This document shows positions 45,489 to 64,000 of a DNA stretch of 64,000 bases, piece by piece. Each line of letters opens with the position of its first letter. Within the stretch, counting starts at the first letter, position 1. The position numbers and the translations under genes are program-made. The DNA comes from a virus. The stretch covers positions 107,074-171,073 of IMG/VR virus record IMGVR_UViG_3300050821_007134, one strand, 5' to 3'. Below the pieces are notes generated by a model that did not search any database, was not told the origin of the DNA, and saw only the letters and a list, made by a program, of their open reading frames with translations.

Positions 45489-47552
45489 TTAAGCTAACGG
45501 TCTTGCGAATAAAAGTGTCCATTCTACGAATCCAGTACCGGGGGCTCCACCATCTTGGTTTGCTTCGTAAACTTGAACGGTGTAAGTATGAGTTCCAACT
45601 GGAGGAGTATCTATAAATCTGAATGCAGCAGGAGAAGATCCGCCTCTTTCAAATCCAGTGTTATTCCCGGACATAAAAGCTTGAGTAGAAATCAATGTTC
45701 CATCTCTATAAAATAAAATATTAATCTGTGGCCAAGTATTTACCGCCCCAGTGTGATAAGCTATAATTGTTCCAATATTCCCAGAACCATCGTCTTGAAG
45801 ACCGACTTCGACATCTCCGCCATTACATATTACTGTTGCACTTAATGGATTAACTCCATCAGTTATGGGAGTAGGAGAATTTGGAATTACAAAACTAGCG
45901 CCCGTAGAATTTGATTTAACAATTCTAGAAACTAAAGACGCTGGTACGGCAGAAGATGATATGCCTGCTACCATTGTGGCGACTAGTTGACATCCTATAA
46001 CATTTACGCCAGAAGGAGCCGTGGGAGCACTACTGGACGAATAATATGCGAAAGCAGTATAGGTATGGGTACCAGCTGGCGGGTTATCAGTAAAGTAGAA
46101 ACTAGCAGGAGAAAAACCTGTGATACCTACGCCAATATTGTTTTGCTGACCAGCTTGCTGACTGCAAATCTGCACACCATCTCTATAGATATCTATGATG
46201 CCATAAGCTACAATCCCAGAATTACGGTAAACCTGAATCATCGATCCTTCGGTCACGCCGTCTGGTTCGAATCCAATTCTGACTGCCTGTCCTTGAGTTG
46301 TGATTACACATTGTATGGGGTTGCTGCTGGGATCTGTTATTTGAGCGCCTGGAGCCGTAGTTACAGCCGTGCTGAAACCAGGACTGCCAGTTGAATTGCT
46401 CTTGACTGGTATGTTAAGTCCGAAGGTTGTGGACGGACTTGCGATCTGAACTATGTCTAAATAGTTCCCGACAGTTCCGAGATAAGTGGGAACACTTGCC
46501 GTTCCGTTCCATATACCCTGTACTGTATCGCCGCTTTTTAGAGTGGTGCGTATGTAACAGAAAGCATCCTGAGTCTGGATAGTAGTGCCAGAACCAATTA
46601 CGGTAGACTGAAAAAATGAACTAGCAGATACCTGAACACCATTAACATAAATTCCAATGTATTGGTTGGCACTGTGACCTGGAGTCTGCGCTACGGAAGA
46701 TCCCATGGCGATGATGTAATCTCCACCAGCCGGACATGTCCATGTACCCGTGGAAGGATTATATGCATTAAAGTTGTCTTGGACAACGGTGTCATATATG
46801 ATTGGAGAACCAGAGCCAGGCATAGTAGAACTGAACTCTACGCGGGACTTTACTATGGGACTACCATTTGCACCAGCCATACTATTAGGACTTATAGACA
46901 CGTTTGCAATATTGAAAGTCCAAGCCAAGGCATTGGTCGTAGTAATATGCCAAATAAGTCTATAATTAGTACTGTTGAAATTTGTTTGAAAATATCCGCT
47001 AAAACTTCCAGGCGTAGCAACTCCATTTACGAAATAATTAGGAGTGACCGGTATCAACACAGCGTTAGTGATGTCGTATACCCACATTTGAATATCACTG
47101 TTAGTTCCAAGCACGAAGTTAGCACTTGCTTGATATTCAAAGCTTATGTTGATAACTCCAGGAGAAAAAGCTAAATCACTAGTGAAATCGTATGATAATC
47201 CTTCACCTTGAGCGTTGGCCGCAGCTTTGGATAAAACCCCCATCGTGTGACCGACAAGAGGAGAAGTTTGGGTACTTGTAAATGTGAGATTAGTGACTGC
47301 GCCGCCGGTACCAGTCGTAGGTTGAGACACGGCGCCGTTATTATAGAGATTATAGCCATTGGTCGAGCCAATACTTGGATTAGTATTGTAATTTATGGTT
47401 CCGCTGCCGCCGAGAGGTCCCCAGCTGCCGTTCTCAAAACCTAAGAAGCCCTGGATGGTATCAAAATAAACATCTCCATCTGCGGGATTTGTAGGTGCCG
47501 TCATCCCGTAAAAGCTAATACCTTTACGGACTTTCCAAAAATTGTCTGCCAT
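45489..47552 (-). CDS. Modular tail fibre / receptor-binding protein, 687 aa
   Basis: Same N-terminal motif; C1q-like (YNPSTGTWTCPAGGDY); two KSNSTG modules shared with 41646..45479. Confidence 0.75.
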   Translation of the reverse strand: MADNFWKVRKGISFYGMTAPTNPADGDVYFDTIQGFLGFENGSWGPLGGSGTINYNTNPSIGSTNGYNLYNNGAVSQPTTGTGGAVTNLTFTSTQTSPLVGHTMGVLSKAAANAQGEGLSYDFTSDLAFSPGVINISFEYQASANFVLGTNSDIQMWVYDITNAVLIPVTPNYFVNGVATPGSFSGYFQTNFNSTNYRLIWHITTTNALAWTFNIANVSISPNSMAGANGSPIVKSRVEFSSTMPGSGSPIIYDTVVQDNFNAYNPSTGTWTCPAGGDYIIAMGSSVAQTPGHSANQYIGIYVNGVQVSASSFFQSTVIGSGTTIQTQDAFCYIRTTLKSGDTVQGIWNGTASVPTYLGTVGNYLDIVQIASPSTTFGLNIPVKSNSTGSPGFSTAVTTAPGAQITDPSSNPIQCVITTQGQAVRIGFEPDGVTEGSMIQVYRNSGIVAYGIIDIYRDGVQICSQQAGQQNNIGVGITGFSPASFYFTDNPPAGTHTYTAFAYYSSSSAPTAPSGVNVIGCQLVATMVAGISSSAVPASLVSRIVKSNSTGASFVIPNSPTPITDGVNPLSATVICNGGDVEVGLQDDGSGNIGTIIAYHTGAVNTWPQINILFYRDGTLISTQAFMSGNNTGFERGGSSPAAFRFIDTPPVGTHTYTVQVYEANQDGGAPGTGFVEWTLLFARPLA

Positions 47553-47595: not shown

Positions 47596-49851
47596 TTACC
47601 TTAAGAATCTATGTATGTCGATCCTCATGGTTCTCGCACTGGTGTTAGTAGATGTATATCGTAACTCTATGTTTGAGCCGTTTACGACTGCTGTGAATGT
47701 CACGCCAATATCGGCTGTATCATTCGAAGTATCCGTTAAAGATGCACTAGATCCATCACTATTGGCTACAAGAGACAACTTACCCATTCTAACGATTGTT
47801 GGAGATGAGTTATCGGTCATGTAGTATTCAGCCTGATAACCAGCGTATGTTGCGAATGCGAACGTTGTAGAAGCGTCCACAGCCACAGCCGAAGATTGGT
47901 TATTGGCTAAAGTGATAGAATCGACGTATTGCTTTTCAATGTACCTTGAAGTCGAGGGACCAATTCGTTCCATGTTGACGACAACATTGGGGCTATTTGC
48001 ATTGCTGTCCGTTATAAAACCACTAGGATCACTGAATAATGCTCTATTTGGATTTAACGCAGCGAGTTTAGTCAGAGCAATTGCTGCGGAAGCTGCAATT
48101 TGGGTATTTGAAATACCGCCTGCTTTAACTTCTAACGCGTTGCCACTAATATCGATAGTAGTACCGTCTGGATTAACTGCGATACCTGCGGCGCCAACAA
48201 TAATGGCTCCGGCTGGATCTCTCTTAACAATTAAGCTTCCAGGAGTAGAAGTTAAAGAGTTGTCTCCAGGAGTAACGTCAACATTTTGGCCAGTTTGAGT
48301 TAAGCCGTTTCTGAAAACATATGGATTGACTGATGCGAATTTTGCAAATGTAAGTGCGGTTGCGCCAATGACGATTGTTGCGGGAGCTTGTTGAACCCAG
48401 GCAGTCAAGGCATTAACTGTACCTTCATCTACGAAGGCAGCAGCAGCCAATAATTCAGTAGGAGTATTGGCATCTAAAGAACGAGTCAAAACCCAAGGAA
48501 CACTTACTGTATCCCCTTGTTGACTTAAATAATAAATACCATTGTTTGCTGGATTGGCTTCACCATTAACGATGATTCGATCATTGAGGGCAAGCGTTAC
48601 GCCATCAACAGCAGCGAAGGCAGGGAATGTTCCATCGGCAGATGTTAAAGTTGCGCCTACGCCAGATGCTCCGTTGTTATATGTATTTGTCGGGAGAGGA
48701 GAAGTGCTGATTGCACGAACATGTTGTTTCCAATCAATACCTTGTAAGTATTGTTGCATTTGGCCAAGACTAACGGCATCGGTAAGTGCAGTTGCAGGGG
48801 CTAAGTTATTTATCTGATTTCCGCCCATATTGATAGCGCCAGACATCGTCCCGCCAGCAAGTGGCAAGAATGATGGAGCAACCCAATGGCCAGATCCAAG
48901 AGTATCCGAAGATGTCCAAAGCCATCCTGCGCTACCTTCAGAACCATCTACAAATCTAATTTTTCCTCGTACTGCACCGGCATTTCCAATTTGAAGTATT
49001 ACGTTACCAGAGTTTCCACTTGTAGAAGCTCCAGAACCAAAAGTTGCGTCTCCAGTATTTCCAGTATTGGCATTTCCAGTTGCGATCTGTGCTGGTCCAG
49101 AATTTCCAGAACCGGCAGCCGATCCTGTACCTGCTAAATAATTACCTGTATTGGCGGTTGCAGTGGGATCTGTTACATTTCCGGAAGCTACGTATAGACC
49201 GCCCGTGGGAGCCGTAGCACCAACTGCCGTGTTATCTCCGCTGATTAAATAAACATAAGTTGTCGCAATTGAAGCAACTGCGGTATCAGTGCTACCTATA
49301 ACAAAAACATCTGCATCTGTTCCATTTTGGGAAGAATCGATAAACAAACCAGGAGTTGGTCCGCCCCAAACGTTAACACTTTGAGCCATACTAAAGAAAA
49401 AGTTGTTGTTGAAGAAACGAACATTTCCTTGAGTTGCAGTAGCGCTACCAGGATTTAAGTTGATATTCCCTGAATTACCAGAGGAAGCATTTCCAGACGT
49501 TACGTTTACATCGCTAGAAGTTATTCCATTGGCAGTCATCAAAGCTAATGCGCTTGCGCCAGAATTTACTTGGACTGTATTAACTGAAGACCATCGTAAA
49601 GAGGCACTGCCGATATTGCGAGTTAAATCCGCAGATGGTAGTAAATCTTGATTGATAGACGTAGTCGTTAGGTTGCTTAGAGCAGTATTAGCTCCTGTTG
49701 CGGAAACTAAATTTGTCCATGCTCCACCTATGTATGCACGGAATAAATTGCTGGCCGTATTATAGTAAATTTCCCCGTTAAATCCAACGCCGGGATCGGC
49801 TGCGAGATTCCCTAAAACTATCGGACTTAGGCCTAATTTATACTCGTTCAT
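47596..49851 (-). CDS. Tail fibre protein, 751 aa
   Basis: FLPLAGGTMSGAINMGGNQINNLA..DAV fibre motif; KQHVRA..VDGVTL..NDRI..NGIY..LTRS.D domain; Gly/Asn/Ser repeats. Confidence 0.8.
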   Translation of the reverse strand: MNEYKLGLSPIVLGNLAADPGVGFNGEIYYNTASNLFRAYIGGAWTNLVSATGANTALSNLTTTSINQDLLPSADLTRNIGSASLRWSSVNTVQVNSGASALALMTANGITSSDVNVTSGNASSGNSGNINLNPGSATATQGNVRFFNNNFFFSMAQSVNVWGGPTPGLFIDSSQNGTDADVFVIGSTDTAVASIATTYVYLISGDNTAVGATAPTGGLYVASGNVTDPTATANTGNYLAGTGSAAGSGNSGPAQIATGNANTGNTGDATFGSGASTSGNSGNVILQIGNAGAVRGKIRFVDGSEGSAGWLWTSSDTLGSGHWVAPSFLPLAGGTMSGAINMGGNQINNLAPATALTDAVSLGQMQQYLQGIDWKQHVRAISTSPLPTNTYNNGASGVGATLTSADGTFPAFAAVDGVTLALNDRIIVNGEANPANNGIYYLSQQGDTVSVPWVLTRSLDANTPTELLAAAAFVDEGTVNALTAWVQQAPATIVIGATALTFAKFASVNPYVFRNGLTQTGQNVDVTPGDNSLTSTPGSLIVKRDPAGAIIVGAAGIAVNPDGTTIDISGNALEVKAGGISNTQIAASAAIALTKLAALNPNRALFSDPSGFITDSNANSPNVVVNMERIGPSTSRYIEKQYVDSITLANNQSSAVAVDASTTFAFATYAGYQAEYYMTDNSSPTIVRMGKLSLVANSDGSSASLTDTSNDTADIGVTFTAVVNGSNIELRYTSTNTSARTMRIDIHRFLR

Positions 49852-50215: not shown

Positions 50216-53200
50216 TTATGCTCTCTTTATAATTTCTACAGTCAAAGGACTGGTTGTAATATCCGCTGTGAATTGAATTTGAGTACTCGAAACTTCAGTA
50301 TAATAAGTTCCACCTGATGGAGGTGTTACCGCAGAACTTACAAATCTTGAAATTCTTTGACCGTTAACGAACACGTCCAAATTACCGACGGTTGATCCGC
50401 CGTTTGATCCAACAGTGTAAGCAAACAGAAGAGTAACGTTAGTCAATCCCAAAACATTGAATGGAGATAGACAATTGTAAGGGGTGCTAGAACCATCTGA
50501 CATAGTGAATGCAGAAGCTAGAACTCCTCCAGGAAGAACAGGAGAATAACTTGGCAATCCAGTAGGACCGGCTCCGCCGTCTGACCATCTCTTGATGGAG
50601 TACTTGAATGTAACGTCTCCACCAGAATTATCGGTTACATAAGAAAGTGAAACGTTTCCACCAGACATCGAGCCTGAGAACGTCACTCCAGTTGCGGCAG
50701 TATAGGCGCCACCAGCAGAAGCTTCTGCTACGATTCCATTATTAGTGAGCCAGATGGTACCTGTTTCTTTGTTTCCACTTCTGAGGATAGAGAAATCTAT
50801 AATGATGTTCTCACTTCCAAGAGCAGTTACAGAGAAAACGTTTCCAGATGTATTATTCAAAAGTGTTGAAGTAATAATGGAACTTTGTTCCCAGAAATCA
50901 ACTCCGTTGAAATATCTTACAGTGTTATTTACTAACCATGTAGAACCGTTGAATTCTGAAATCTGATTTGCAAACTCAATACCTTGAGTGATTACTAGTA
51001 AATCACCGATAGCAGGATCATAGGGAGATGCAAATTCTGGTTGAGGAGTCCAGGATATAGATCCAGGGATAACAGTTCCAGCTAAGGCACTATCATCGAC
51101 GATTACATGATAAAGAGTTCCAGAAGTTAAAGACGTAGTACCTGCGAAGTTAAAGGTGTAGGTCGTAGGCGTAGTCGTTAAAATAGCCGAGTTAACTGGA
51201 GAACTGGTCTCTAATAATGTACCTGGCTGACCGGCGCTATCTGTATAAACTTTAGCTACTAAATTTCCGCTATTTGGGGGAGATGCGGTCAAGATAGATA
51301 ATTGAAACTTAGCATCGGTTAAGAATGCAGTAGATGCAGCCGTAAATGTTTGACCAAGACTTGTTGTATTTGTCGTCTCATTCTCTGTAGAATTGATGGA
51401 TAAATTCTGAGCAATAATAGTCGGTGTCGATCCGCCACCAGAGAAGGGAGGGAATACGTCAAATATATCTGTAACTCCGCCGCCGCCGCTGGACCATGTC
51501 GATCCTGAATTTAAAGTCTGAACTGAACTTGGAGGTACGGATGTTGGAGTTATAATCCAAGCCCCCCAATGAATAGAGTTACCAACACTTATGCCAGTAA
51601 CATTAGTCGGATCAAGAACGATAAAATATACAGTACCGGATGTTAATCCAAGTGTTTGAGGAACTGAATAATTTTGGAATTCAGCCGTTAAAGTACTAGC
51701 GTCAATGAAACTATATTGACTTAGTCTTACTCCGGGTACTCCGCCACTATTGGAATAAATTGAAACTCTAAGATTTCCTTGTAATGCACCTGGAGCTGCA
51801 CCTGTTCCTAATGGAAGTTTAACTGATCCCATCGTAATATTCGAAGGAGCAGTAAAGGGTTGAGCACGCCAGTTAGAAGTAGCAGTGAGAGTTTGAAAAT
51901 TCATCTGCTGACTTGGACCAGGCAATGCAACTGAGTTAGTAGCTATGCGATTCGCATTGACAGCTACGAAATAATGCTGATTAACAGGAGATCCACTATC
52001 CAGCAATGGTGTAGGGAATGTTGCGCCCGTATCAGTCGATTCAATTGCTCCAGGACTTGTTAAGGATGGAGTGTCAGAAGCGATTCTAATTTCGTATGAT
52101 CCACTCACTAAAGTCAAGTGAGCTAGACTGGTTACTAAATGATACGTAGTTCCAGAAACAAGAGTAGCACCAACAAAATTATATGGATTAAAATTACCAG
52201 GAGATGTCGGTATTAAATTGTGTGCGATTGAACTTAAATTACTAAGCAGTGTTCCAGGTTGGCCCGAACCATTATCTGCATAAATTCCTAAAGTAATATA
52301 TCCGTTGTATGTACTGCCGTTACCGATCCAAAGATCTACTGAGGCAGAAACAACATCGCCATTGGCAGATGCAACGAAAGGTTGAGATGTTGCAAAATTG
52401 GTTCCGGTTAATGCATTAAATTGTGTACCGTTATTGTACTGTCCAACTGATGTATCGCCCGAGCCTCTGCTACCGGCAAGAACTGTATAAATAGCAGTTG
52501 TACTTCCAATAATTGGGAATGTCGACCCGCCATCGCTTGATAGACTTAATTCTGGAGGTTGAGTCGCAGCACATGCGCCTGTACCTAAGAAGATAATTCC
52601 TGAACCTCCTAGACCAGTTACGTTTGCGAAATTCCAAAGTATCCAATATTGATTTCCAGCGACTAAAGTTGTCGTTGTAAGTTGAGTTATGATGTAATTG
52701 ATTCCAACGCCTGCATTTGTTAACGTGCTTGCGTTTACGTTTACACTGTTAATTAAAGAGCCTGGAGATCCAGCACTGTCGTTGTAGATACCGACGCTAA
52801 ATGTTCCACCTAAAACTCCACTAGCTCTAGACATTGTGTACATTACAGCAGCAGTTGTCTGAGTAATATTTGGACTAAACGGTTGAGCTGCAACATTACT
52901 TGTCGAAGTAATGCTGATATTATCAGTAGAAGAAACACCGAATACGTTCTCGGCCATTAATCCCGAACTGGTAGTTACGTTGAAATTTGCATTTACACTA
53001 GAATTGACTGACCAAGTTCCGCCGCTATTTGTGGAAGTAAGTAGGAATGGATTAGTCGCACCAGAAGTACTAACCAATAATCGGAGAGTGCTTGCAAAAC
53101 TTACATTGGTTGGATCAATTACCAAGTGATATGTTTGACCAGATACTAAAGATCCGTAAGCAAAGTAAGTGGTTATTGCTGAAGGAGTTTGACTACCAGA

Positions 53201-56200
53201 TGCGGTTGCGCCTAAATCGGCGGTATTAATTGGGGCGATACTACTGATTCTTGTTCCAGGAACGCCAGCATTATCTGTCCAAATACTTAGATCTAAATTT
53301 CCACTTCCGACTGTCGCATCCCAATAAGTTCTGATAGTAACTGATCCTAATGGACCAGAAACAGAAGCAACAAAGGGTTGATCAATCCAATCAACACCCG
53401 AAGTCATGTCAGAGAAAACAAGACCACTTCCACTAAATGAACCTGCTATGGCAGGATTTCCACTACCAGTGGTAATTGTTCCATCGATTGTAAACCACAT
53501 ATCGTTGGCTGGTTGAGCTGTAGCTATGCCGCCTGTAACGACTTCCATATTTCCACCAGCGTAAGGATTGGCGGTGGACATTTGGAATACGATTTGATTT
53601 GGTAAAGTAGGAGATGTACTGCCAGGAGTAACGGCTGCTTCATACACTCTATTGTTGCCACTAAGAAGTTGTGTAAAAACAACTAAATCGTTATTTGCAA
53701 CTGTAACTCCATCAATGACAACGGGTGTAGAAGATGGTAATGCAGTATCTACGCCGTCATATAAATTGACTTTTATTAAAGATCCAGATCCACTTCCAGA
53801 TCCAGAGCCAACTCCGAGTTGAACGATATTAGCTTGAGGGATTGGAGAAATATTTGTACCATCAGAAGATGTAACTACTATTTGTCCAAGAGCAATGCCG
53901 GTTCCGGCAAAAATTGATCTAGGTGCAGCGGCAGCTGAAGCTCCATCGGCGGCAGCGGGCAATACTAGAATATCGCCGCTCATTCTGTTATCGGAACCAA
54001 GAACATTTGGAATTACAACGATAGTAAACCAACGCCACATTCCAGCGGCAGGAATTACAGGAGTAAAGTTAACTCCGGAAACACCACTAATAACGCCTGT
54101 TTGAAAATTGACTGTTGCGCCTGGGAAGTTAAGTAAGAAGCTACTGATTCTTTGGCTTCTGGTTTCGCCAGTAAGCATTGTTACATCAGAATTGCTGATC
54201 AAAATAGTTTGATTATTTGTAGGTCTAACAGCTGAAAGTCTTAATTCACTGAAATATTGATCCAATACTCCAAGAGCGCCATCATTCAGGGAAGCTTCTC
54301 CGTCTAAGAGAGCAAATGAATGTGTGCCAACGATGATTTGAGAACCATTTCTTCGAGCAATAATAACAGTATTGGAATCAAGAGCAACCGAGGCAATGGC
54401 TGCAACGTTTACGGTCAATGTGGCTGGAGCCCCTGAACGATTGATTTCAACATAGGCGACTTGATCATCAGATGCGAGGGTTACACTTCCTGCGGCGATT
54501 CTGTTTAAGTTATCGGCCTGGCCTGGAATTTGAATGAAGGCATCGGCAGACCAACTTAAAACTGGATCTGAGAAGAACCAAGTTCCACCTTTGATTAATT
54601 TTAGATTTCTATCTTGATTGGAAACTTTGATTGAAGTTCCAGCTGCTACATCGAGTTCACTGATTGCAGAAGTTAAATCAATACCTTGAGTAACGATATT
54701 TGTAGAACCATACTGAGGTTGCGTGTCACCTGCGTAAGCTGCTCCGATATATTCTAGAACGGCTTCCATTTGACTACTGTCATCAGAGATAACTTCACCT
54801 TGAGAAATTTCACCAATACCACGGAGATAAATTGTTGCTGTTCCGTTTACTGTTCCATTCCCGGAAGTTGCATCGAGTCCAGTGTTTACAACGGTGAAAG
54901 TATTTGCCGTTGGAGTTGTAATAACTTCATAAAAACCATTGAAAGTTGTATCGGTAACTCCAGCAACCTGTACGCCCTGACCGGCATTGATACCGTGAGG
55001 TCCAGTTGTCGTGAAAGTTGTGATACCGGATACGCGTACTGCGCCAGTAGCAGGAGCGGCGATGCTTGCTGTGATAGAGCCGTTATCATCTCGTTTTGCA
55101 ATCCAATAAACATTCCCATTGGCTGGAACGGAATCTGGATTGGAAACTTGCATTGTATATGAACCAGTATAGCTAAGAGCAATACCGGAAACACTTGCAC
55201 CGATTGGAACTGAACTTGGAACGTTTATGGTGGCCGGTTGACTTAAGGTAATTGCTGCCGTGAGAGCAATTAATCGTCCGTTAACTGTTCCACCAGAAGT
55301 ATTTGTAATTGATGCTTGAGCTATAATTGTACCGACGAATGTCCCTGGGCTACCTACGTTAATAGTAGCTGAACTTCCAATTGCCCAATAAACGTTAGAA
55401 GCTAAAGCTCCACCGGTCAAACTAATTGTGGCAACTCCGCCTGCGCCCGTAGTGAGAGAGGAAGCGCACTGAATGACAAATATGTCAGTTGCAGAACCGT
55501 GGAATGTTAGGGTTGCTGGACCAGATTGTGCCAAAGTAGCTGCACCTGAAGAGAAGCTATAAACACCTGCCGTAAGTGTCTGTCCATCAAGGGCTGAAGG
55601 AATTATTGTTGAAGGTCTGGTCGATAAATCAGTATAGGCAGCTAAAGCTCCGTTCTGAGCAGAATGAGCTGCGGCATTACCTAAATCAGTTGAACCTGTT
55701 ACAGTGAATGCGCCCGTAACAGTACTTCCAGGGTATTCTCCCATGCTACCGTTAACTGTACTTGTTCCAACGCTATTGGTGATCGCTGAAGCGGCCAAAA
55801 TACCGTAGTTTGCTGCGGTTCCTAAATTTGGACTTCCAGGAGGAGGAGTCGGTGCGCTAACACCATATGGATTTGCAAGAGTTATTGTATTCCCAGAAAC
55901 GTTAGTTACCTGGTCGATATTGGCCATACTGTCTGAGAAGAAAACAATATAATCGCCGGGGAAAATTCCAGCTACAAGAGATGAACCCGTAACGATGTTC
56001 GAACCATAAGTGAATGTGAATGTGTTTGAAGGCTGAAAATTATCTGCTCTATTTAAAACTACATAAGCAACTTGATGATCATTTAGGGTAACATTCCCAG
56101 CTGGTATCTTGTAACGTAAATTCCCGATGATCGAATCAATGTACAGATCGCCTGTCCAAGTCAACATACCAGGAGTTACTTTGCTGTGGATGAATTTGCC

Positions 56201-57079
56201 GCGCATAGCCAAGAGACTTGCGGAAGAGTCGAAGAATAGGTCAGTTAAATTGACTCCACCAACAGAAGATGATCCTGCGGTGTACCAAAATGCAGAACCT
56301 TTGATTTCTTTGATGACGCTCATTATGGCGTCTTTCCAGTCCTTTTCGGTGCCGAGCATCTTGTCGCCACCATGGAATGGATTTATTGCATTACTTGAAG
56401 AAATGAATGGGCTTTCAGTGCGCCCTTCAGATTGAGCGGTCCAAGGATATGAGTAAAATGGATTCGGAGTTGTTCGACCGGCGGTACCCAATCTCATCAT
56501 GAGTCGTCGATTGTCTTCAATACTTATGACATTGTTCCCGGCATCCGTGGTGATTGTACAAACAGGAAGAACGTTTGAGGCCCAGGTGCCAGTAGAAATT
56601 ACGATGTTGTACTGTAGAATTTGGGCTCGGGGGATGATCTTAGTTGTTTCATCATTGATGGTCGGGTCCCAAATATAAACTTGGGTCGCGGTAGTATCGT
56701 CAATGAATCGAACATATTCAATACCAACGAAATTAAGAGAACTTGGGGAGAATGATCCCTGTACAATGGGGTTTATAGCGCTGTTAAGGACCTGAGGAGC
56801 TGTTCCAGGCCTTACAACCAGGAAAGTACCTGACTGCTTTGATTTGGAGTGAAGTATGGCGGCCTGGTCAACGTTCATTAGGGCGCCGCTGGCGGCCCCG
56901 CCGATTAAACCGGCCATTGAGATATCGAAACCCCTAAAGATGTACCCTTCGCCTGATCCTAGGTAAAGTGTCTGCAATAACTCGTCAAAGTCATTGGATG
57001 CGGCGGATTCAATAGATCTTAGGTCTGGGACATCGACTCGTTGCTGTGATACCCAATTTACACGACGTTTTACTGCCAT
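50216..57079 (-). CDS. Giant baseplate-attached tail fibre/structural protein, 2287 aa, with an inserted DUF3494 domain and five tandem beta modules
   Basis: Position after baseplate genes; HGINAGQGV..NGFYEV (FCCH-like) motif; QPF..D..G.PGT..L.SG..Y repeats. Confidence 0.8.
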   Translation of the reverse strand: MAVKRRVNWVSQQRVDVPDLRSIESAASNDFDELLQTLYLGSGEGYIFRGFDISMAGLIGGAASGALMNVDQAAILHSKSKQSGTFLVVRPGTAPQVLNSAINPIVQGSFSPSSLNFVGIEYVRFIDDTTATQVYIWDPTINDETTKIIPRAQILQYNIVISTGTWASNVLPVCTITTDAGNNVISIEDNRRLMMRLGTAGRTTPNPFYSYPWTAQSEGRTESPFISSSNAINPFHGGDKMLGTEKDWKDAIMSVIKEIKGSAFWYTAGSSSVGGVNLTDLFFDSSASLLAMRGKFIHSKVTPGMLTWTGDLYIDSIIGNLRYKIPAGNVTLNDHQVAYVVLNRADNFQPSNTFTFTYGSNIVTGSSLVAGIFPGDYIVFFSDSMANIDQVTNVSGNTITLANPYGVSAPTPPPGSPNLGTAANYGILAASAITNSVGTSTVNGSMGEYPGSTVTGAFTVTGSTDLGNAAAHSAQNGALAAYTDLSTRPSTIIPSALDGQTLTAGVYSFSSGAATLAQSGPATLTFHGSATDIFVIQCASSLTTGAGGVATISLTGGALASNVYWAIGSSATINVGSPGTFVGTIIAQASITNTSGGTVNGRLIALTAAITLSQPATINVPSSVPIGASVSGIALSYTGSYTMQVSNPDSVPANGNVYWIAKRDDNGSITASIAAPATGAVRVSGITTFTTTGPHGINAGQGVQVAGVTDTTFNGFYEVITTPTANTFTVVNTGLDATSGNGTVNGTATIYLRGIGEISQGEVISDDSSQMEAVLEYIGAAYAGDTQPQYGSTNIVTQGIDLTSAISELDVAAGTSIKVSNQDRNLKLIKGGTWFFSDPVLSWSADAFIQIPGQADNLNRIAAGSVTLASDDQVAYVEINRSGAPATLTVNVAAIASVALDSNTVIIARRNGSQIIVGTHSFALLDGEASLNDGALGVLDQYFSELRLSAVRPTNNQTILISNSDVTMLTGETRSQRISSFLLNFPGATVNFQTGVISGVSGVNFTPVIPAAGMWRWFTIVVIPNVLGSDNRMSGDILVLPAAADGASAAAAPRSIFAGTGIALGQIVVTSSDGTNISPIPQANIVQLGVGSGSGSGSGSLIKVNLYDGVDTALPSSTPVVIDGVTVANNDLVVFTQLLSGNNRVYEAAVTPGSTSPTLPNQIVFQMSTANPYAGGNMEVVTGGIATAQPANDMWFTIDGTITTGSGNPAIAGSFSGSGLVFSDMTSGVDWIDQPFVASVSGPLGSVTIRTYWDATVGSGNLDLSIWTDNAGVPGTRISSIAPINTADLGATASGSQTPSAITTYFAYGSLVSGQTYHLVIDPTNVSFASTLRLLVSTSGATNPFLLTSTNSGGTWSVNSSVNANFNVTTSSGLMAENVFGVSSTDNISITSTSNVAAQPFSPNITQTTAAVMYTMSRASGVLGGTFSVGIYNDSAGSPGSLINSVNVNASTLTNAGVGINYIITQLTTTTLVAGNQYWILWNFANVTGLGGSGIIFLGTGACAATQPPELSLSSDGGSTFPIIGSTTAIYTVLAGSRGSGDTSVGQYNNGTQFNALTGTNFATSQPFVASANGDVVSASVDLWIGNGSTYNGYITLGIYADNGSGQPGTLLSNLSSIAHNLIPTSPGNFNPYNFVGATLVSGTTYHLVTSLAHLTLVSGSYEIRIASDTPSLTSPGAIESTDTGATFPTPLLDSGSPVNQHYFVAVNANRIATNSVALPGPSQQMNFQTLTATSNWRAQPFTAPSNITMGSVKLPLGTGAAPGALQGNLRVSIYSNSGGVPGVRLSQYSFIDASTLTAEFQNYSVPQTLGLTSGTVYFIVLDPTNVTGISVGNSIHWGAWIITPTSVPPSSVQTLNSGSTWSSGGGGVTDIFDVFPPFSGGGSTPTIIAQNLSINSTENETTNTTSLGQTFTAASTAFLTDAKFQLSILTASPPNSGNLVAKVYTDSAGQPGTLLETSSPVNSAILTTTPTTYTFNFAGTTSLTSGTLYHVIVDDSALAGTVIPGSISWTPQPEFASPYDPAIGDLLVITQGIEFANQISEFNGSTWLVNNTVRYFNGVDFWEQSSIITSTLLNNTSGNVFSVTALGSENIIIDFSILRSGNKETGTIWLTNNGIVAEASAGGAYTAATGVTFSGSMSGGNVSLSYVTDNSGGDVTFKYSIKRWSDGGAGPTGLPSYSPVLPGGVLASAFTMSDGSSTPYNCLSPFNVLGLTNVTLLFAYTVGSNGGSTVGNLDVFVNGQRISRFVSSAVTPPSGGTYYTEVSSTQIQFTADITTSPLTVEIIKRA
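55217..55828 (-). other. DUF3494 ice-binding-like beta-solenoid domain, copy 1
   Basis: NLGTAANYGILAASAITN..GQTLTAGVY..IFVIQ..SSLTT..GGALASNVYWAIGSSATI..FVGTIIAQASIT..VNGRLIALTAAITL. Confidence 0.88.
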
Positions 57080-57113
57080 TTACTTACCCTTAACTTTAGA
57101 CGGTTACTCTTAT

Positions 57114-57191
57114 AAGATTGCGTGGTTGCATATTCTGTTGTTCTTATTCTAAATATCATATAAACTGTCTCTGGCACGTAGGCTGAATCTT
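57114..57191. promoter_or_regulatory. Divergent pair of AATCTT motifs (minus 57114-57119; plus 57186-57191)
   Basis: Each lies about 20-35 nt upstream of the start codon on its own strand. Confidence 0.35.
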
Positions 57192-57213
57192 CATGGTAAG
57201 AGAATAGGAGATC

Positions 57214-57609
57214 TTGGTGGGAAAGACGAAACGTGGTGACCGAGAATATTCCAGAGAACAACAATTACTCTATGAAAACAAGAGGTTAAAGAGAGAGAAT
57301 GCAAAATTAAGAAAACTGGCCGCTAGAGCGAACCTAGACAAATTTTCAAGTGCAAAAGACCTAATTGAGCAGAATTATCAAGGAGATAGGGCTCAAGAAG
57401 GCGAAAAAATCGTCGAACAACTCAAGAAAGAATGGGCATGTCGGGAGCCAAGATGCGACGGATATCTAGAAATTTTCACTTACAATAAGATCGATGTGAC
57501 GTGGTATTTTCGAAAATGCTCTAACCCATCGTGTCATAATAGAACAAAAGCCAAACTTTATACGCCAGACGTAACTGGAATCACTAAAGAAACCGCCAAG
57601 TTAGAGTGA
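57214..57609 (+). CDS. Hypothetical protein, coiled-coil plus zinc ribbon
   Basis: AGGAG RBS; CREPRC...CSNPSC. Confidence 0.7.
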   Translation: MVGKTKRGDREYSREQQLLYENKRLKRENAKLRKLAARANLDKFSSAKDLIEQNYQGDRAQEGEKIVEQLKKEWACREPRCDGYLEIFTYNKIDVTWYFRKCSNPSCHNRTKAKLYTPDVTGITKETAKLE

Positions 57610-57610
57610 T

Positions 57611-57639
57611 TTGACTGTTTACCTTAATTGGGGTATAGT
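57611..57639 (+). promoter_or_regulatory. sigma70-type promoter TTGACT-N17-TATAGT
   Basis: Near-consensus boxes upstream of the SLT gene; followed by an ATCACC/GGTGAT hairpin and a GGAGG RBS. Confidence 0.75.
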
Positions 57640-57677
57640 AATACATCACCCTCATGGTGATATATGGAGGTTTTGTG

Positions 57678-58112
57678 ATGTATTCGAAAATTATTTTACT
57701 GGCCGCAAAAAAGGCCGCAGTCTCAGGTGCTCTTTTGTTGGCAATTTGCTCACATGAAAGCCATCTTAAAAATGTGGCCGTAATGGATGGGAAAACTTTA
57801 AGTTATGGAATTTGTCAGGTAAAACTCGCCACAGCTCAACAAATGGGTTTTAAGGATGCTCCCGAACGTCTGATGATCCCAAAAGAGAATGCTAAGTGGG
57901 CAGCCAAGTATCTTAAGTTTCAGCTTAAACGATACCATGGAAATAACTGTAAAGCCGTAGCGGCCTACAATTCCGGGACCTTCCGAGAAAGTATGTATTA
58001 CCCCGGTATGCCCCGCAATATAAAATATATTCAGTGCGTCAAAGAAAAAATGCCCCCAAGACTTAGTGACAATATAACCTGCTTTCAGGTAAAATACGCA
58101 GAAGCAAGATGA
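57678..58112 (+). CDS. Lytic transglycosylase (SLT/GH23), candidate endolysin
   Basis: AICSHES (catalytic Glu), SYGICQVK, AVAAYNSG; ATG 57678 after GGAGG. Confidence 0.85.
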   Translation: MYSKIILLAAKKAAVSGALLLAICSHESHLKNVAVMDGKTLSYGICQVKLATAQQMGFKDAPERLMIPKENAKWAAKYLKFQLKRYHGNNCKAVAAYNSGTFRESMYYPGMPRNIKYIQCVKEKMPPRLSDNITCFQVKYAEAR

Positions 58113-58288
58113 GTTTAAAAAGAGCCAAAGAACAACAGAAGTACGAAACCAATCCGACGGTTGATAACCGCCTTCGCAGGGGTTTACTCCGTTGTTCTCT
58201 TTGTCCTCCTAATAAACATGAAAATCAAAAATGCCATAAAAAGCATGGTGTCAAAAAGCCAAAATACAAAAACAAAAGGCGAAAATGA
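58109..58288 (+). CDS. Small basic Cys protein, 59 aa (...RCSLCPPNKHEN...KKPKYKNKRRK)
   Basis: ATGA overlaps at both ends; not in track. Confidence 0.6.
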   Translation: MSLKRAKEQQKYETNPTVDNRLRRGLLRCSLCPPNKHENQKCHKKHGVKKPKYKNKRRK

Positions 58289-58902
58289 ACGTAACCTCTC
58301 TTGACCTAGAAATGAACAAACCAAGCGGAAAGATCATCCAAATCGGGGCCGCAGCCTATAAAGCTCGCACGGGCGAACTCATTGAAACATTCATGACTTG
58401 CGTCAATCCAAATGAACCGATTGACCCCTATATTACAGAACTAACCGGAATCACCGACGCTGACGTTAAGAATGCTCCGCAGATCCTAGAAGCTTATCGA
58501 ATGATTGAAGCTTTCCATAAAAAGCACAAATGCTTCATGAACCCTATCGTTTGGGGAAGCGGTCGAAGTAACGACAGTCTTTGGCTTTACGATGAGGCTA
58601 AACCATTTATCGGTGGAGAAGATAACTTCTTTGGTCATCGAGTCGTCGATGCAAAAGCTGTCTTTCAAAGTCTCGCTATGGTCAAAAATGTAGGTGTAAA
58701 GGCAGGCGTGGCTAAGGCTTGCAGTAAGCTCGGTCTTGGATGGAATTGTACTTACGGACCCCCGCATAGGGCATTGGCCGATGCATCAAATACTTTTAGA
58801 ATTTGGTTTCATTTAGTCAGTAGGTTAGGTAATCAGTTTACTTTAAACTTAGGACCTGTCGAGAGCGAACAAGGGAACAATTCCAGCAAAGTCAAAATTT
58901 AA
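58285..58902 (+). CDS. DEDDh 3'-5' exonuclease (KapD/ERI-like)
   Basis: LDLEMN, IIQIGA, LTGIT, WGSG..D, HRALADA. Confidence 0.85.
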   Translation: MNVTSLDLEMNKPSGKIIQIGAAAYKARTGELIETFMTCVNPNEPIDPYITELTGITDADVKNAPQILEAYRMIEAFHKKHKCFMNPIVWGSGRSNDSLWLYDEAKPFIGGEDNFFGHRVVDAKAVFQSLAMVKNVGVKAGVAKACSKLGLGWNCTYGPPHRALADASNTFRIWFHLVSRLGNQFTLNLGPVESEQGNNSSKVKI

Positions 58903-59274
58903 GGTGTAGACACCTTTGGCTGGAGCTGTATGGCTTTCTCTTATGACCTTAGCTCTTGGAATAAAAACAATATCTTCACCACTAGATCTATCAGTCACTC
59001 TAATCGAGATGTAGGGCGAAGCTGCGAAATCTTGGAATAAGGGTCTAATATTGGCAGCCTGAAGTCCACCTGAAAACTTAATTCTAATTCCACTTATAGA
59101 ACCTCGAACACTCACATGTCCGGGCGCGATCTCCTGAGCATATGGGGAATCAATCCCATAAATCTCATTCTCGCCGTAATCTACATTCAACGAGAAAGTC
59201 CTAATAACATTGTAGGCCTTGTTGTTGATATAAATTTTTATCAATGCGCCTGTAAGAACCAATGATTGTGCCAT
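58849..59274 (-). CDS. Tail-tube-like protein, 141 aa
   Basis: LTGALIKIYIN...EIYGIDSPYAQEIAP..V.GS all-beta pattern; TAATG-coupled start at 59274. Confidence 0.5.
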   Translation of the reverse strand: MAQSLVLTGALIKIYINNKAYNVIRTFSLNVDYGENEIYGIDSPYAQEIAPGHVSVRGSISGIRIKFSGGLQAANIRPLFQDFAASPYISIRVTDRSSGEDIVFIPRAKVIRESHTAPAKGVYTLNFDFAGIVPLFALDRS

Positions 59275-61199
59275 TACGGACCCCAAATCGTAGAGATTTC
59301 AGAATTGGCAGTGCCCCATTCGCCAAGTCCAATATCATTAGGATACAGAATAGTGAAAACAATCGTGATACCGGTTGCTGCAACACTATTGATCAAATCT
59401 TGCGCGTAAATACGGCCACTCACAACATCCGTTAGATAGAAAGGATAATTCGTTCCATCTTGAGTCAATCTAACTGGAGATTTTTGTGCCACGAGAGCAA
59501 CATCTGTTCCAAGAGGATGAACATTCTGAATTGTATAGGCGGGGCTGATCAATAAAGTTGTATTAGAAGGTCTCGAAATATAAGGAATCGGGCCTTCTTG
59601 ATGGCTAGTGCCATATCCTAAAACAATGTATCCCAATGCATCTGGGAACTTAGAGGCATCCTTTACAGTGATAATTCTAGGCGAAGCTGTATTAAGATTT
59701 TGACTCAACAGTGTACCCGTACTACTTATGACAAATGGTTGAGACAAATCATATGCGTAGGGTCCTGGTTGATTGGGTAATAAAGAGGTATTATCGCCAA
59801 GAGGCCCGCTCGCAACTACATTGTCTGAACCCGTATAGGACATGACTAAAGTGTTATTTATGGAATTGTTTAAAACCAAAACTGTGTCGAGAATATCGTC
59901 AATATTATCAGAATCAGATCCAGTATTTGCTATAGCTACTATGTTTGCAGACAAAGCATTAATTGCTGCCACTAGATTATTAACAGTAGTTGGAATATCT
60001 GAACCAATGACAAAGTCCGCCCCAGCTACCAAACTAATCGTAGTCGTAATTTGGAACCTATCTCCAGAACTTGGCTGTTGGAAAAATTTAAAAGTTCCTT
60101 GCGGATCATAATGAATATGAGCAGAACCGATTCTACTTCTTCGAATAACCTTAGTAGATGCGGGAAGAAATATCTGAAGCATTCTTGATTGAACTTGATA
60201 AATGGCCGCATAAGAATGTCTACTATTTAAAGTTTGTTTTGTAGGATTGTAAAACAAAACTGCTGAAGTAGATCCCTGAGTAAATGTGCCGGATACTCCT
60301 AGAGGATTTAGTACTTCAAAATAAGATGCGCCTGCAATTCCACCGACAGAATTGGTGATTGTGTAACTTCCAGAATTAGGAGAGCCCGTGAATCCTCCGC
60401 CAAAAATATTTACATAATTCCCAGCTTGAACTTTACCCAAATTAGGGTTAGCTCCACCAGTCCATGTAAAACGAATAACTCCACCAGGCTGTAAGGAAGT
60501 GGTCCATTGAGTAGATCCGTTACCTCCGGCGGGAACAGCCGTAGGGAATACTAGAACATTTTGTGCGCTTCCACCTTCGATAGTTACCGAAGATGCTGGT
60601 CCAATAGTATCACTTAAAATTTCAACATATGGTCCGTTCCCATCGTTTTTCATGATGGCGGTGCCACCAAATCCAAGATTTCTTAGTTCGGTAACAATTG
60701 CATCGGCTACTTCTTGTGCTTTTGCCATTGCAATATTTTGAAATTGAGATGCGTGAAATGTAACTGTAACAGTAGTGCTTTCATCAAAATTGATAGTTAG
60801 GGTATCACCATCGGTTAAGTGATAAGGCTCAAACATAGTGGAAGACACACTCGCACGAACAAATTCGTCGCCAAAAACAGCGTCCAAAATATCATTCATG
60901 AGGTCTCTGACTTGTTTTCTATTTTTTACTGCGATACCGATTTGTCTAAAAACATCGTCTGATAAACCAACATTAGATGGTCTAACAATACCCGATTTGG
61001 CAAGTAAGGCGTCCAAATATTGAGCGGAAGCTGTAGCAATATATAGTTGGTCATTCACTGCCCTGACATTATTGATCAAATAGGCAGCGTTACCAGACGC
61101 TAAGGCCGTAAGAACGGCATCAACATTGGGACCTTTTATGTAAGGGTTAAGATATGACCGAAGTCTTGCATATTGTTCGGCTACCGTCGTTATCGCCAC
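59274..61199 (-). CDS. Baseplate wedge protein
   Basis: QLYIATASAQYLDAL...GI.RP...LSDDVFR motif; directly downstream of the baseplate-J-like gene. Confidence 0.65.
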   Translation of the reverse strand: MAITTVAEQYARLRSYLNPYIKGPNVDAVLTALASGNAAYLINNVRAVNDQLYIATASAQYLDALLAKSGIVRPSNVGLSDDVFRQIGIAVKNRKQVRDLMNDILDAVFGDEFVRASVSSTMFEPYHLTDGDTLTINFDESTTVTVTFHASQFQNIAMAKAQEVADAIVTELRNLGFGGTAIMKNDGNGPYVEILSDTIGPASSVTIEGGSAQNVLVFPTAVPAGGNGSTQWTTSLQPGGVIRFTWTGGANPNLGKVQAGNYVNIFGGGFTGSPNSGSYTITNSVGGIAGASYFEVLNPLGVSGTFTQGSTSAVLFYNPTKQTLNSRHSYAAIYQVQSRMLQIFLPASTKVIRRSRIGSAHIHYDPQGTFKFFQQPSSGDRFQITTTISLVAGADFVIGSDIPTTVNNLVAAINALSANIVAIANTGSDSDNIDDILDTVLVLNNSINNTLVMSYTGSDNVVASGPLGDNTSLLPNQPGPYAYDLSQPFVISSTGTLLSQNLNTASPRIITVKDASKFPDALGYIVLGYGTSHQEGPIPYISRPSNTTLLISPAYTIQNVHPLGTDVALVAQKSPVRLTQDGTNYPFYLTDVVSGRIYAQDLINSVAATGITIVFTILYPNDIGLGEWGTANSEISTIWGP

Positions 61200-61201
61200 G
61201 T

Positions 61202-64000
61202 TTACGATCCAATCTGAGAAACTGAGATATCCGTAGTAGGATCTAGGATTCTGGCTTTCTCGCTTGGAGCAACAAAAATTAGATCATGTGTTGCATCGTA
61301 TTGAGGACTGCTTATAGCCATGGCGTATACGCCAGGTATTGCATTAACGGCTGAAACGATAGCGCTGATTGCAATCGACTGGCCAACTGGATTGGAATTG
61401 ATTAACGAACTCACGCTACTTCTAACCTGAGTAATGATTTGAGAGAATGCTACGCCCGTGAGGAGTCTTACGACAATACCAACTTGAACTCGTAATGTTA
61501 AAGATTCTTGAACAAAAATTTCTGCACCTGCGGCACCGACGCCGGGATATGTAATTGGATCTCTTGGATCTCCATAAATAATACGGTTCGCTTCTGCGAT
61601 TAAACCAGTGTTGTATCGATAGCTGTCTAATCCCATTCTGATTACAGTGCTAAAATTTTCTTTCCCTAAAGAAACCATTTGAACACCAGCTGATTGATCG
61701 ATCTTTTCATATTGTGCATTTGTATCGAATACGATACTGGTTCTGGTAGGAGCGCCTGGCTGGCCAGCGATTAAGAATGCATGTTTATAGCCAGTGTATG
61801 GGACCCCTTCGGTAACAAAAACTGCACTTTCACTGCCAGTCAAGTTAACATTGTTTGCATTTGCTAATGAAGCATTGACGATTACATTATTTTGATCAAT
61901 AACTTTTGAAATTACCCAGCTTCCTTGATTGGAAGCGCCAAGAACATTGGAAGTAATTGTGAACAAATCGCCTGGAACAGTAGCTTCGTATTCGAAAAAT
62001 TGAAGTTGGGGTCTATGAACAGTCAAGAAACTAGACGTAACAAAAACAGCCGATTGAGGAACAAATGATGCATTATCCACATTTATAAAAGCTCTTCTTC
62101 CTGCCTGTGTTATTGTAATTGAGAAGGGAGAAGGAACGTTAAAATTGCTTGCATGAGTTGTTTCGATAAATCCCGTAGTTGCAATATTTACTAAATTGCT
62201 TAATGAAGAAGCCGTGAAGTCTCCAGCGAAACCATTGATCGCAGATGCAGTTTTGGTAGCTACTTGAGATGAATTATCGCCGCTCAAAATAGCGACCATA
62301 ATACCAGACGTGTAACCTCCAGGAGCGGGATCTGTGTTAGTTCCGTTTACATTGTACCAAACATAGTCTTTATGTACGTTTCCTGCGCTGAATAAGGTAA
62401 AATATGTACCTGCGCCAGATGGCAAGAATCCAGAACCGGCGGGAACAACTAGTTGAGTTAATTCTTGAAGTTTTCCACCAGTGCCAACAACCATAAAAGA
62501 TCCCTGGTTTGCAGAGGCGAAATCTGTACCAAAATTTACGATATCTCCAACTTGAACGTTTGTAAAAGTAGGTTCTGTTCCTACGCCATTCCAGCTAAGG
62601 TGCTCGACGTTATTTAGAGAACTTATATTAAATGAGGTTGAACTATCAAATACAATACTAACAGGATTGAAAGGTAAACTTACTTCTTCTTCAATAACAT
62701 CTGGATTTTCAAACCATACACTGTTGTTGTATTCTCGAATGACTCTGAATTCCCCTTGATTCAAGATATTGAATGGGGCTCCTACGGTCATTGTATCGCC
62801 TTCTTGAACACTAACTATCGATGAGAAATCTCCTGGATCAAAAGAATCGCCCATTAAGGATGATCCACTAGTCGTAACGACTGGAGTTCCGCTATAAGCT
62901 AGAGCGATTGAGGCTGAAACAGAAGTGGCAGTTATTGTAACGACACTGCCTGAAGCTGATGCTGTCACTCCTGGAACTGTGCCGATAACGGCGGCTAAAT
63001 TGAAAGCTGTGATTTGTTGTGTTGCCCCGATAGGGAAATTGGTCCCCGCGACTAACACTGTTGATCCTACAGTAAAAGAATCTCCTGCGGTAGAATTTCC
63101 AGAGAAAGTAAATGTTCCGCTAGAAAATTCATTTTTGGCCAAAGGATTGAGAACTTCAACTGTTTTGCCATCTGCGGAAATACCGGTTACTAAGAAACTT
63201 CCATTGTTTGCAGAATTAGGAAGTCCAGAAACAGTTAAGATATCGCCGATAGACAATGCAACGAAACTAGCATTGCCTGATTCAATGATGTACTGAGAAT
63301 CATTTGAACTCGGTAGAGCAAAAACGTTTATCGTTCCGCCGCCGGGCGAGACGGGGAAAGCATTGATAGTTGTTGGTTGACTTAAAGTTATTGCAGCCGT
63401 AAGGGCAATTAAACTACCATTGACAATTCCGCCTAAGGTATTTGTGATACTCGCTTGAGCTATAATATTACCGTTGAAAGTTCCAGGAGATCCTGAATTA
63501 ATAGTTGCAGAGCTACCTACTACCCAATAAACGTTCTCGGCTGTCGCTCCGCCGGTTAAAGTTATTGTTGCAACGCCGCCAGCGCCAGTGACAAGTGTAC
63601 TTGAAGCTTGGAATATGTAAACACCGGCACCATTAAGAGTGAGAGTTCCAGGACCAGATTGGGCTAAATTAAATGTACCAGAGGCTTCTTTGTAAACCCC
63701 AGGCGTTAAAGTTTGTCCATCTAAAGTAGAAGGAATGGCCGTAGCGGTCATAGAATTCATGCTAGTGAAAGCTGCCAAAGCATCGTTTTGAGCCGTATGG
63801 GCCGCAGCATTACCTAAATTAGTCGCACCAGATACGGTGAAAGCTCCGGTCACTGTGCTTCCAGGATATTCTCCTAGATCGCCATTGACAATACTAGTCC
63901 CAACACTATTAGTGATAGCAGAAGCAGCTAAAAGACCATAAGAAGCTGCGGTTCCTAAGTTAGAACTTCCGCCTCCTCCGCCAGCATCATTAAAATTCAG
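61202..64000 (-). CDS. Baseplate-J-like wedge protein (5'-partial, at least 932 aa) with an inserted DUF3494 domain
   Basis: C-terminal VRSSVSSLINSNPVGQSIAISAIVSAVNAIPGV; frame is open to the window edge (LNFNDAGGGGGSSNLGT...). Confidence 0.75.
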   Translation of the reverse strand: MNFNDAGGGGGSSNLGTAASYGLLAASAITNSVGTSIVNGDLGEYPGSTVTGAFTVSGATNLGNAAAHTAQNDALAAFTSMNSMTATAIPSTLDGQTLTPGVYKEASGTFNLAQSGPGTLTLNGAGVYIFQASSTLVTGAGGVATITLTGGATAENVYWVVGSSATINSGSPGTFNGNIIAQASITNTLGGIVNGSLIALTAAITLSQPTTINAFPVSPGGGTINVFALPSSNDSQYIIESGNASFVALSIGDILTVSGLPNSANNGSFLVTGISADGKTVEVLNPLAKNEFSSGTFTFSGNSTAGDSFTVGSTVLVAGTNFPIGATQQITAFNLAAVIGTVPGVTASASGSVVTITATSVSASIALAYSGTPVVTTSGSSLMGDSFDPGDFSSIVSVQEGDTMTVGAPFNILNQGEFRVIREYNNSVWFENPDVIEEEVSLPFNPVSIVFDSSTSFNISSLNNVEHLSWNGVGTEPTFTNVQVGDIVNFGTDFASANQGSFMVVGTGGKLQELTQLVVPAGSGFLPSGAGTYFTLFSAGNVHKDYVWYNVNGTNTDPAPGGYTSGIMVAILSGDNSSQVATKTASAINGFAGDFTASSLSNLVNIATTGFIETTHASNFNVPSPFSITITQAGRRAFINVDNASFVPQSAVFVTSSFLTVHRPQLQFFEYEATVPGDLFTITSNVLGASNQGSWVISKVIDQNNVIVNASLANANNVNLTGSESAVFVTEGVPYTGYKHAFLIAGQPGAPTRTSIVFDTNAQYEKIDQSAGVQMVSLGKENFSTVIRMGLDSYRYNTGLIAEANRIIYGDPRDPITYPGVGAAGAEIFVQESLTLRVQVGIVVRLLTGVAFSQIITQVRSSVSSLINSNPVGQSIAISAIVSAVNAIPGVYAMAISSPQYDATHDLIFVAPSEKARILDPTTDISVSQIGS
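63353..63961 (-). other. DUF3494 ice-binding-like beta-solenoid domain, copy 2
   Basis: NLGTAASYGLLAASAITN..VNGDLG..GQTLTPGVY..VYIFQ..ENVYWVVGSSATI..FNGNIIAQASIT..VNGSLIALTAAITL. Confidence 0.88.

Follow-up and report, generated by a model that had tools for sequence, protein, structure and literature searches.

DUF3494 (Pfam PF11999, 'Ice-binding-like') is the commonest microbial ice-binding fold, although many of its members occur outside icy habitats. On viral contigs from Arctic viromes, PF11999 has been interpreted as representing auxiliary metabolic genes (AMGs) for host cryoprotection (PMC11515562), and neither phages nor permutations feature in a review devoted to non-canonical DUF3494 forms (PMC11645318). 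No account of the domain in particle proteins emerged from literature searches on DUF3494 and phage or on ice-binding and bacteriophage tail. Here we analyse the final 64 kb (positions 107,074 to 171,073; 64,000 nucleotides, hereafter 'the window') of virus record IMGVR_UViG_3300050821_007134 (G000; 171,073 bp, completeness rating 100%), which contains the baseplate and fibre end of the genome of a large, uncultured, contractile-tailed phage of the Mx1 group (Myxococcus phage Mx1, OR576727). In this phage the DUF3494 fold is an exchangeable building block of the tail, found in four predicted particle proteins and absent from most of their orthologues. The window holds two of the four, P0001 and P0002, and the features with which we are mainly concerned are as follows (aa, amino acids; IBP, ice-binding protein).

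50216..57079, minus strand: P0001, a 2287-aa fibre-like baseplate-module protein with N-terminal anchor, IBP cassette, ~80-aa cassette and five ~150-aa repeats (open reading frame; homology to Mx1 WNM70277)
55850..57079, minus strand: conserved N-terminal anchor of P0001, aa 1–410 (at least 118 orthologues of ~900 aa without PF11999 match it at 47–62% identity, covering 99% of its length)
55205..55837, minus strand (Pfam envelope 55238–55801): DUF3494/IBP-1 cassette in P0001, aa 415–625 (PF11999, AlphaFold2 model, Foldseek, gap versus the IBP-less P0124)
61202..64000, minus strand: P0002, 5'-open, 932 aa forming the C-terminal end of a baseplate-J wedge protein of 2409 aa, whose first 1477 aa lie at G000 4431–1 (in-frame join, PF04865, phrog_6)
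63344..63970, minus strand (Pfam envelope 63374–63931): DUF3494/IBP-1 cassette in baseplate J, P0002 aa 11–219 or joined aa 1488–1696 (PF11999 E 2.8e-32; family profile 294 bits)
G000 73889–76663 (L009:1889–4663), minus strand, outside the window: 924-aa tail sheath with PF11999 (phrog_279; colinear with the Mx1 sheath, to which its C-terminal half is 45% identical)
G000 90339–91307 (L009:18339–19307), minus strand, outside the window: 322-aa protein with PF11999, the most canonical match of the four (E 4e-54)

Both window proteins matched PF11999 along nearly the whole profile and above its Pfam gathering cut-off of 28.7 bits, P0001 at aa 427–614 (114 bits, E 7.8e-33, profile positions 1–204 of 208) and P0002 at aa 24–209 (112 bits, profile positions 2–205 of 208). 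This was the sole Pfam match in each, a search of all their other segments returning nothing. A first-pass annotation, made from the sequence without database searches, had placed a DUF3494 domain in each of these two proteins, and both Pfam envelopes fall inside the ranges it gave; the flanking linkers that it quoted (PTPPPGSP and VPSSVP; DAGGGGGSS and VSPGGG) are present, and the motif blocks that it listed as family hallmarks align with the same blocks in solved DUF3494 proteins. Its estimate that the copies are ~70–75% identical compares with a measured 70% protein identity over 218 aa. In the codon alignment, DNA identity was 65%, with a proportion of synonymous differences (pS) of 0.73, which is saturated, a proportion of nonsynonymous differences (pN) of 0.21 and a dN/dS of ~0.09, indicating that both copies are old and under purifying selection; the many synonymous differences had earlier been taken as a sign that both are maintained. 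Recent duplication of, or gene conversion between, the window copies was rejected in view of the saturated dS and of the clustering of each copy with those from the corresponding carrier of other phages. The domain consists to 62% of Thr, Ser, Ala, Gly and Asn and only to 3% of charged residues, and the window cassettes have no signal peptide but are embedded on linkers within proteins of 2287 and 2409 aa.

We aligned 68 domain sequences (A1) and modelled P0001 aa 410–632 with AlphaFold2, which yielded a model of high confidence (mean predicted local distance difference test score, pLDDT, 95.4; predicted template-modelling score, pTM, 0.91) with a long helix (model residues 60–77) and ~20 short strands. 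A Foldseek search with this model against the PDB gave 31 matches at E < 0.001, all of them DUF3494 ice-binding proteins (template-modelling score, TM, 0.73–0.88), the next match being at E 0.07. AnpIBP (7BWY) came top (E 6e-14, TMt 0.88, 32% identity), with EfcIBP (6EIO) also among the best structural matches and the best by sequence (phmmer, E 7e-25). The profile search and the structural model, both proposed in the first-pass annotation as ways to check the assignment, thus returned a full-domain match and a beta-solenoid and, as modelled, the ~210-residue cassette is a triangular, right-handed DUF3494 beta-solenoid with the IBP-1 fold, of the capless type. Among the viral structures in BFVD, the fold was found only in three giant-virus proteins (Hyperionvirus sp. 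A0A3G5A745, A0A3G5ACG7 and A0A3G5AEI1), none of them from a phage.

The 932-aa piece, described earlier as a baseplate-J-like protein, turned out to form just the C-terminal portion of a protein of 2409 aa spanning the record ends. A minus-strand frame of 1477 codons is open at record base 1 and P0002 is open at base 171,073, and joining the two terminal frames (G000 4431–1 and window 64000–61202) gave an in-frame product without a stop. The joined J protein is colinear end to end with the 1925-aa 'baseplate protein J-like protein' of Mx1 (36–38% identity), and the uninterrupted 2621-aa orthologue of the 162-kb relative G001 aligns gaplessly across the record junction. Because of this correspondence with Mx1 J and the G001 orthologue, the record, though given as linear, is on sequence grounds a complete, circularly permuted genome with both ends inside the baseplate-J gene; an assembly chimera at the record ends was ruled out by the same colinearity with uninterrupted orthologues. 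The baseplate-J identity itself had been assigned correctly: the N-terminal part matches PF04865 (39.7 bits; cut-off 21.1) and phrog_6, 'baseplate wedge subunit' (E 3e-20), while the gene adjoining J matches phrog_975, a baseplate protein. J residues 1142–1477 correspond to Mx1 J 1283–1611, and J 1891–1933 to Mx1 J 1626–1667, leaving a segment of ~413 aa (joined aa 1478–1890), with the IBP cassette at its start, versus ~15 residues in Mx1 J.

In the other window carrier, P0001, aa 1–369 share 35% identity with Mx1 WNM70277 (663 aa), whose gene lies two genes downstream of Mx1 J and directly before the endolysin. The AlphaFold2 model of P0001 aa 1–412 was of low confidence (pLDDT 56), and the top 13 VIA structural matches of its better-predicted part (aa ~20–196) were tail fibres, receptor-binding proteins, TssK or baseplates (Z 4.1–7.8), the leading ones, at Z 5–7.8, all being tail fibres, receptor-binding-protein shoulders or TssK, so that the resemblance to the 'shoulder' domains of receptor-binding proteins, fibres and TssK serves as a lead only. 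The earlier description of this protein as fibre-like therefore stands as regards its baseplate-module position and shoulder-type N-terminus, but its fold is read from a weak model; P0001 is likely to be fibre-like, baseplate-attached and probably trimeric. About 1650 residues follow the IBP cassette on its C-terminal side. They include, at aa 666–766 (window 54782–55084), a module of ~80–100 aa common to Microbacterium phage 'major tail protein' genes (34–38% identity) and to Mx1 J aa 935–1000, which, because it is missing from the IBP-less orthologue P0124, is by this comparison a second exchangeable cassette. Further along (aa ~1220–2030, window 50216–53400) are five repeats of ~150 aa with the pattern 'Q-PF ... 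G-L-V-IY-D--G-PG-LL ... G--Y-LV-D' and no Pfam match, which are probably beta-sandwich modules of the distal fibre.

Where two domain-bearing proteins had first been reported, the genome encodes four open reading frames with PF11999, namely J, P0001, the tail sheath and the 322-aa protein. In the sheath the domain is circularly permuted, profile positions 53–209 (aa 187–340) being followed by positions 3–62 (aa 342–402), and the same permutation occurs in the sheaths of relatives (917–986 aa); the Mx1 sheath has at that place another, unrelated insert without a Pfam match. The 322-aa protein has a 110-aa N-terminus without assignment and no signal peptide, and the sequence of its domain differs strongly from those of the remaining three, with at most 41% identity to any domain collected.

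Comparison with related phages supported the supposition of an optional insertion, which is located at domain junctions. PF11999 is found nowhere in Mx1. When the P0001 anchor was searched among shorter proteins, 298 relatives were obtained, and the best 120 of these, all but one of 880–1255 aa (the other has 510 aa), were 47–62% identical to it; PF11999 is absent from at least 118 of the 120, only one of which has any Pfam entry. Aligned with the IBP-less P0124, P0001 1–406 corresponds to P0124 1–408 and homology restarts at P0001 640, equivalent to P0124 435, defining a clean insertion of ~230 residues. Related virus records contain one to five PF11999 matches each, in the same kinds of carriers but at different places: in the close relative L017 (J 79–88% identical) the J cassette lies 156 residues further along, in G001 the J protein has two copies and the fibre orthologue (991 aa) none, and in fibre orthologues generally the cassette starts near aa 415, 610 or 735. 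A set of 120 longer cassette homologues comprised 31 fibre orthologues, 10 sheaths, 5 J proteins and 3 of the small type, the other 73 being additional scaffolds, among which several families resemble phage proteins. A PPGSP-type linker precedes the domain in many of these scaffolds and recurs before it in unrelated carriers. In a FastTree phylogeny of 139 domains, which is approximate and has only local support values, no fewer than 23 changes of carrier label are required, the minimum being 4, and the window fibre copy pairs with the fibre copy of the closest relative, while the J copy groups with J copies. By these comparisons, the cassette is optional and mobile between carriers, moving with its own short Pro/Gly-rich linkers.

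The cassette is also better conserved than the proteins that carry it, being 59–80% identical in distant relatives versus 26–52% for the carriers (L018 fibre, 80% versus 39%; G004 fibre, 68% versus 33%; G004 J, 65% versus 26–31%; G002 J, 73% versus 49–52%), and the distal parts of P0001 are conserved only in its closest relatives. This pattern fits a conserved ligand, recent exchange of the cassette, or both. At least four further metagenomic families of 370–470 aa (P0040, P0044, P0061, P0022, P0036, P0091), none with a signal peptide, carry the cassette, often behind a PPGSP linker, with a short conserved N-terminus before it and a conserved C-terminal domain after it, and from their sequences look like small structural proteins of other phages; two other metagenomic homologues with signal peptides, P0003 and P0045, seem to be bacterial. 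A tblastn search with the cassette and the 322-aa protein against 50,697 GenBank phage records gave no match, which is not proof of absence, as a PF11999 homologue is mentioned in Synechococcus phage S-SKS1 (PMC11515562). In bacterial genomes only distant homologues (33–40% identity) were recovered by a pattern-based scan, which may overlook relatives at ~60%, so the subfamily may not be restricted to phages.

What would such a cassette do? The reading that we favour, and to which we give about an even chance, is that it serves as a multivalent adhesion module of the particle surface for a conserved, repetitive ligand. We infer that the domain, spliced into domain junctions of the J wedge, the fibre-like protein, the sheath (in permuted form) and the 322-aa protein, is present in the particle and exposed outwards, in which case assembly of these multi-copy carriers would present numerous copies of it around the baseplate and over the length of the tail. 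If J is comparable to T4 gp6, each baseplate would contain ~12 J subunits, while six trimeric fibres would bring 18 fibre copies and six sheath subunits per ring would bring hundreds along the tail. Display at the host-contact end, as suggested in the first-pass annotation, agrees with baseplate J and the baseplate-module fibre-like carrier, but the tail sheath also bears a copy, and display would thus extend beyond that end. The domain may act in low-specificity adhesion, with a polysaccharide or slime matrix, a cell-surface polymer or ice as candidate ligands, and the module would hold particles on surfaces where hosts live rather than serve as a strain-specific receptor binder. Several points weigh against this. 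The presence of P0001 in the particle is judged from gene position and the low-confidence anchor model (pLDDT 56, Z < 8), the cassette may be better conserved than its carriers because of recent horizontal exchange and not because of a common ligand, and a rigid solenoid might be a purely structural element. Every solved relative, moreover, is an active ice binder, which favours ice, but the solved structures were picked from cold organisms.

Were ice binding itself under selection, tens to hundreds of active IBP-1 domains on sheath, baseplate and fibres would make the virion a natural multivalent ice binder, which would adsorb to ice, shape or stabilize the ice near it by inhibiting recrystallization, and stay infective and near its hosts through freeze-thaw in seasonally frozen soil or peat. 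That the nearest solved structures (AnpIBP 7BWY, EfcIBP 6EIO, IBPv 5UYT; 30–32% identity, TM 0.77–0.88) are all active ice binders speaks for it, as do the residue composition of the domain given above and the finding of PF11999 genes in Arctic viromes with homologues enriched in polar oceans (PMC11515562). The IBP-bearing sheath of a relative (P0102) occurs in runs SRR7151494, 495, 530 and 531, and adjoining accessions of that run block are peat metagenomes of Woodcroft 2018, which, to judge from the accession range, makes seasonally frozen subarctic peat the probable source of this relative. Nonetheless, heavy sampling of peat biases where relatives turn up, DUF3494 is also found outside cold habitats (PMC7783341), and identity to tested ice binders does not exceed 32%. 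The Thr/Ser ladder, described earlier as looking intact, is readable in the sequence as five stacked [A/S]-x-T rungs whose Thr is at least 90% conserved in A1; however, it is not diagnostic of ice activity because its motifs are conserved across the whole family, DUF3494 having no sequence hallmark of activity. On balance we consider selection for ice binding unlikely.

A structural role, in which the solenoid is a rigid strut or lattice stabilizer that spaces or braces subunits and has no external ligand, would account for the strong purifying selection on the domain, and permutation of the sheath copy places its two termini next to each other, as insertion in a loop requires; outer sheath domains have been described as additions to a conserved core in other myophages (PMC9230969). 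A lattice element would, however, be expected at a fixed position, whereas the cassette is optional in all carriers, sits at different junctions in close relatives and is borne on flexible linkers, and we regard this role as improbable. Quite improbable, too, is a host-receptor-binding module that sets host range, as in other fibre tips. The domain does lie directly after a shoulder-type anchor in the fibre-like protein and in the baseplate periphery, but the ~1650 residues that follow it in P0001 mean that it is not the tip; one copy, moreover, belongs to the tail sheath, a part that makes no contact with the receptor, and in distant relatives the domain has diverged less than the anchors, while distal P0001 is not conserved beyond the closest. 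The higher conservation of the cassette and the sheath copy therefore disfavour a strain-specific receptor binder.

Around the two window carriers lie other genes of the same late module, listed here for context.

59274..61199, minus strand: 641-aa protein between baseplate J and the fibre-like protein, without an IBP domain (phrog_15814, E 4e-12, function not annotated; same slot as the Mx1 'kelch repeat protein' after J)
58849..59286, minus strand: 145-aa protein (weak match to phrog_1407 'major tail protein', E 2.8e-5; Mx1 has a 140-aa gene in the same place)

Two plus-strand genes, for an SLT lytic transglycosylase (window 57654–58112, E 2e-17) and an RNase_T-type exonuclease (58285–58902, E 2e-19), sit between the baseplate-J block and the fibre-like gene, where Mx1 is uninterrupted. 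After the fibre-like gene come three more large late proteins, all on the minus strand (window 41646–45479, 45489–47552 and 47596–49851), which are probably further fibre or receptor-binding proteins; two of them have phrog_15750 in common together with sub-threshold C1q-domain matches, and the 751-aa late protein matches head-decoration and virion-protein PHROGs and, marginally (at the cut-off), the N-terminal Pfam domain of avian adenovirus fibre.

The occurrence of the same carrier with and without the cassette provides a defined system for asking what the DUF3494 fold binds. Were the ligand ice, phage particles would offer a natural scaffold for multivalent ice binding, with a bearing on virus persistence in frozen soils, and this would be the first virus shown to have ice binding as a property of the particle and not as a host-helping gene. 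If it were instead a polysaccharide or some other surface of repeating units, the 'ice-binding' genes annotated on viral contigs and taken as cryoprotective AMGs would have been misread.

Set beside described systems, the phage domain shares its Pfam family, its fold with a long helix beside a triangular beta-solenoid, and its conserved motif blocks with the capless, single-domain EfcIBP (6EIO) and AnpIBP (7BWX/7BWY). These, however, are free, secreted proteins of ~220 aa from cold-habitat microbes with measured ice activity, whereas the phage domain is embedded in tail proteins and is known from sequence and a model. The PF11999 AMGs of Arctic viromes (PMC11515562) are of the same family but were not placed in particle proteins, unlike the in-frame module of baseplate, fibre and sheath described here. 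Mx1 has orthologous carriers in the same gene order as J, the fibre-like protein and the sheath, and differs in having no PF11999 in any of them, with its short J junction, its 663-aa fibre homologue and its other sheath insert. The adhesion module that we favour finds a parallel in the decoration domains of phages. Ig-like and carbohydrate-binding domains of this kind are thought to hold phage particles on surfaces, and the Ig-like ones of T4 Hoc and similar proteins have been proposed to attach weakly and multivalently to a matrix. Like the cassette, as we picture it, they are optional, surface-exposed, multi-copy accessories on structural proteins, but T4 Hoc-type domains have the Ig fold, whereas the cassette is a beta-solenoid spread over four carriers, the sheath included.

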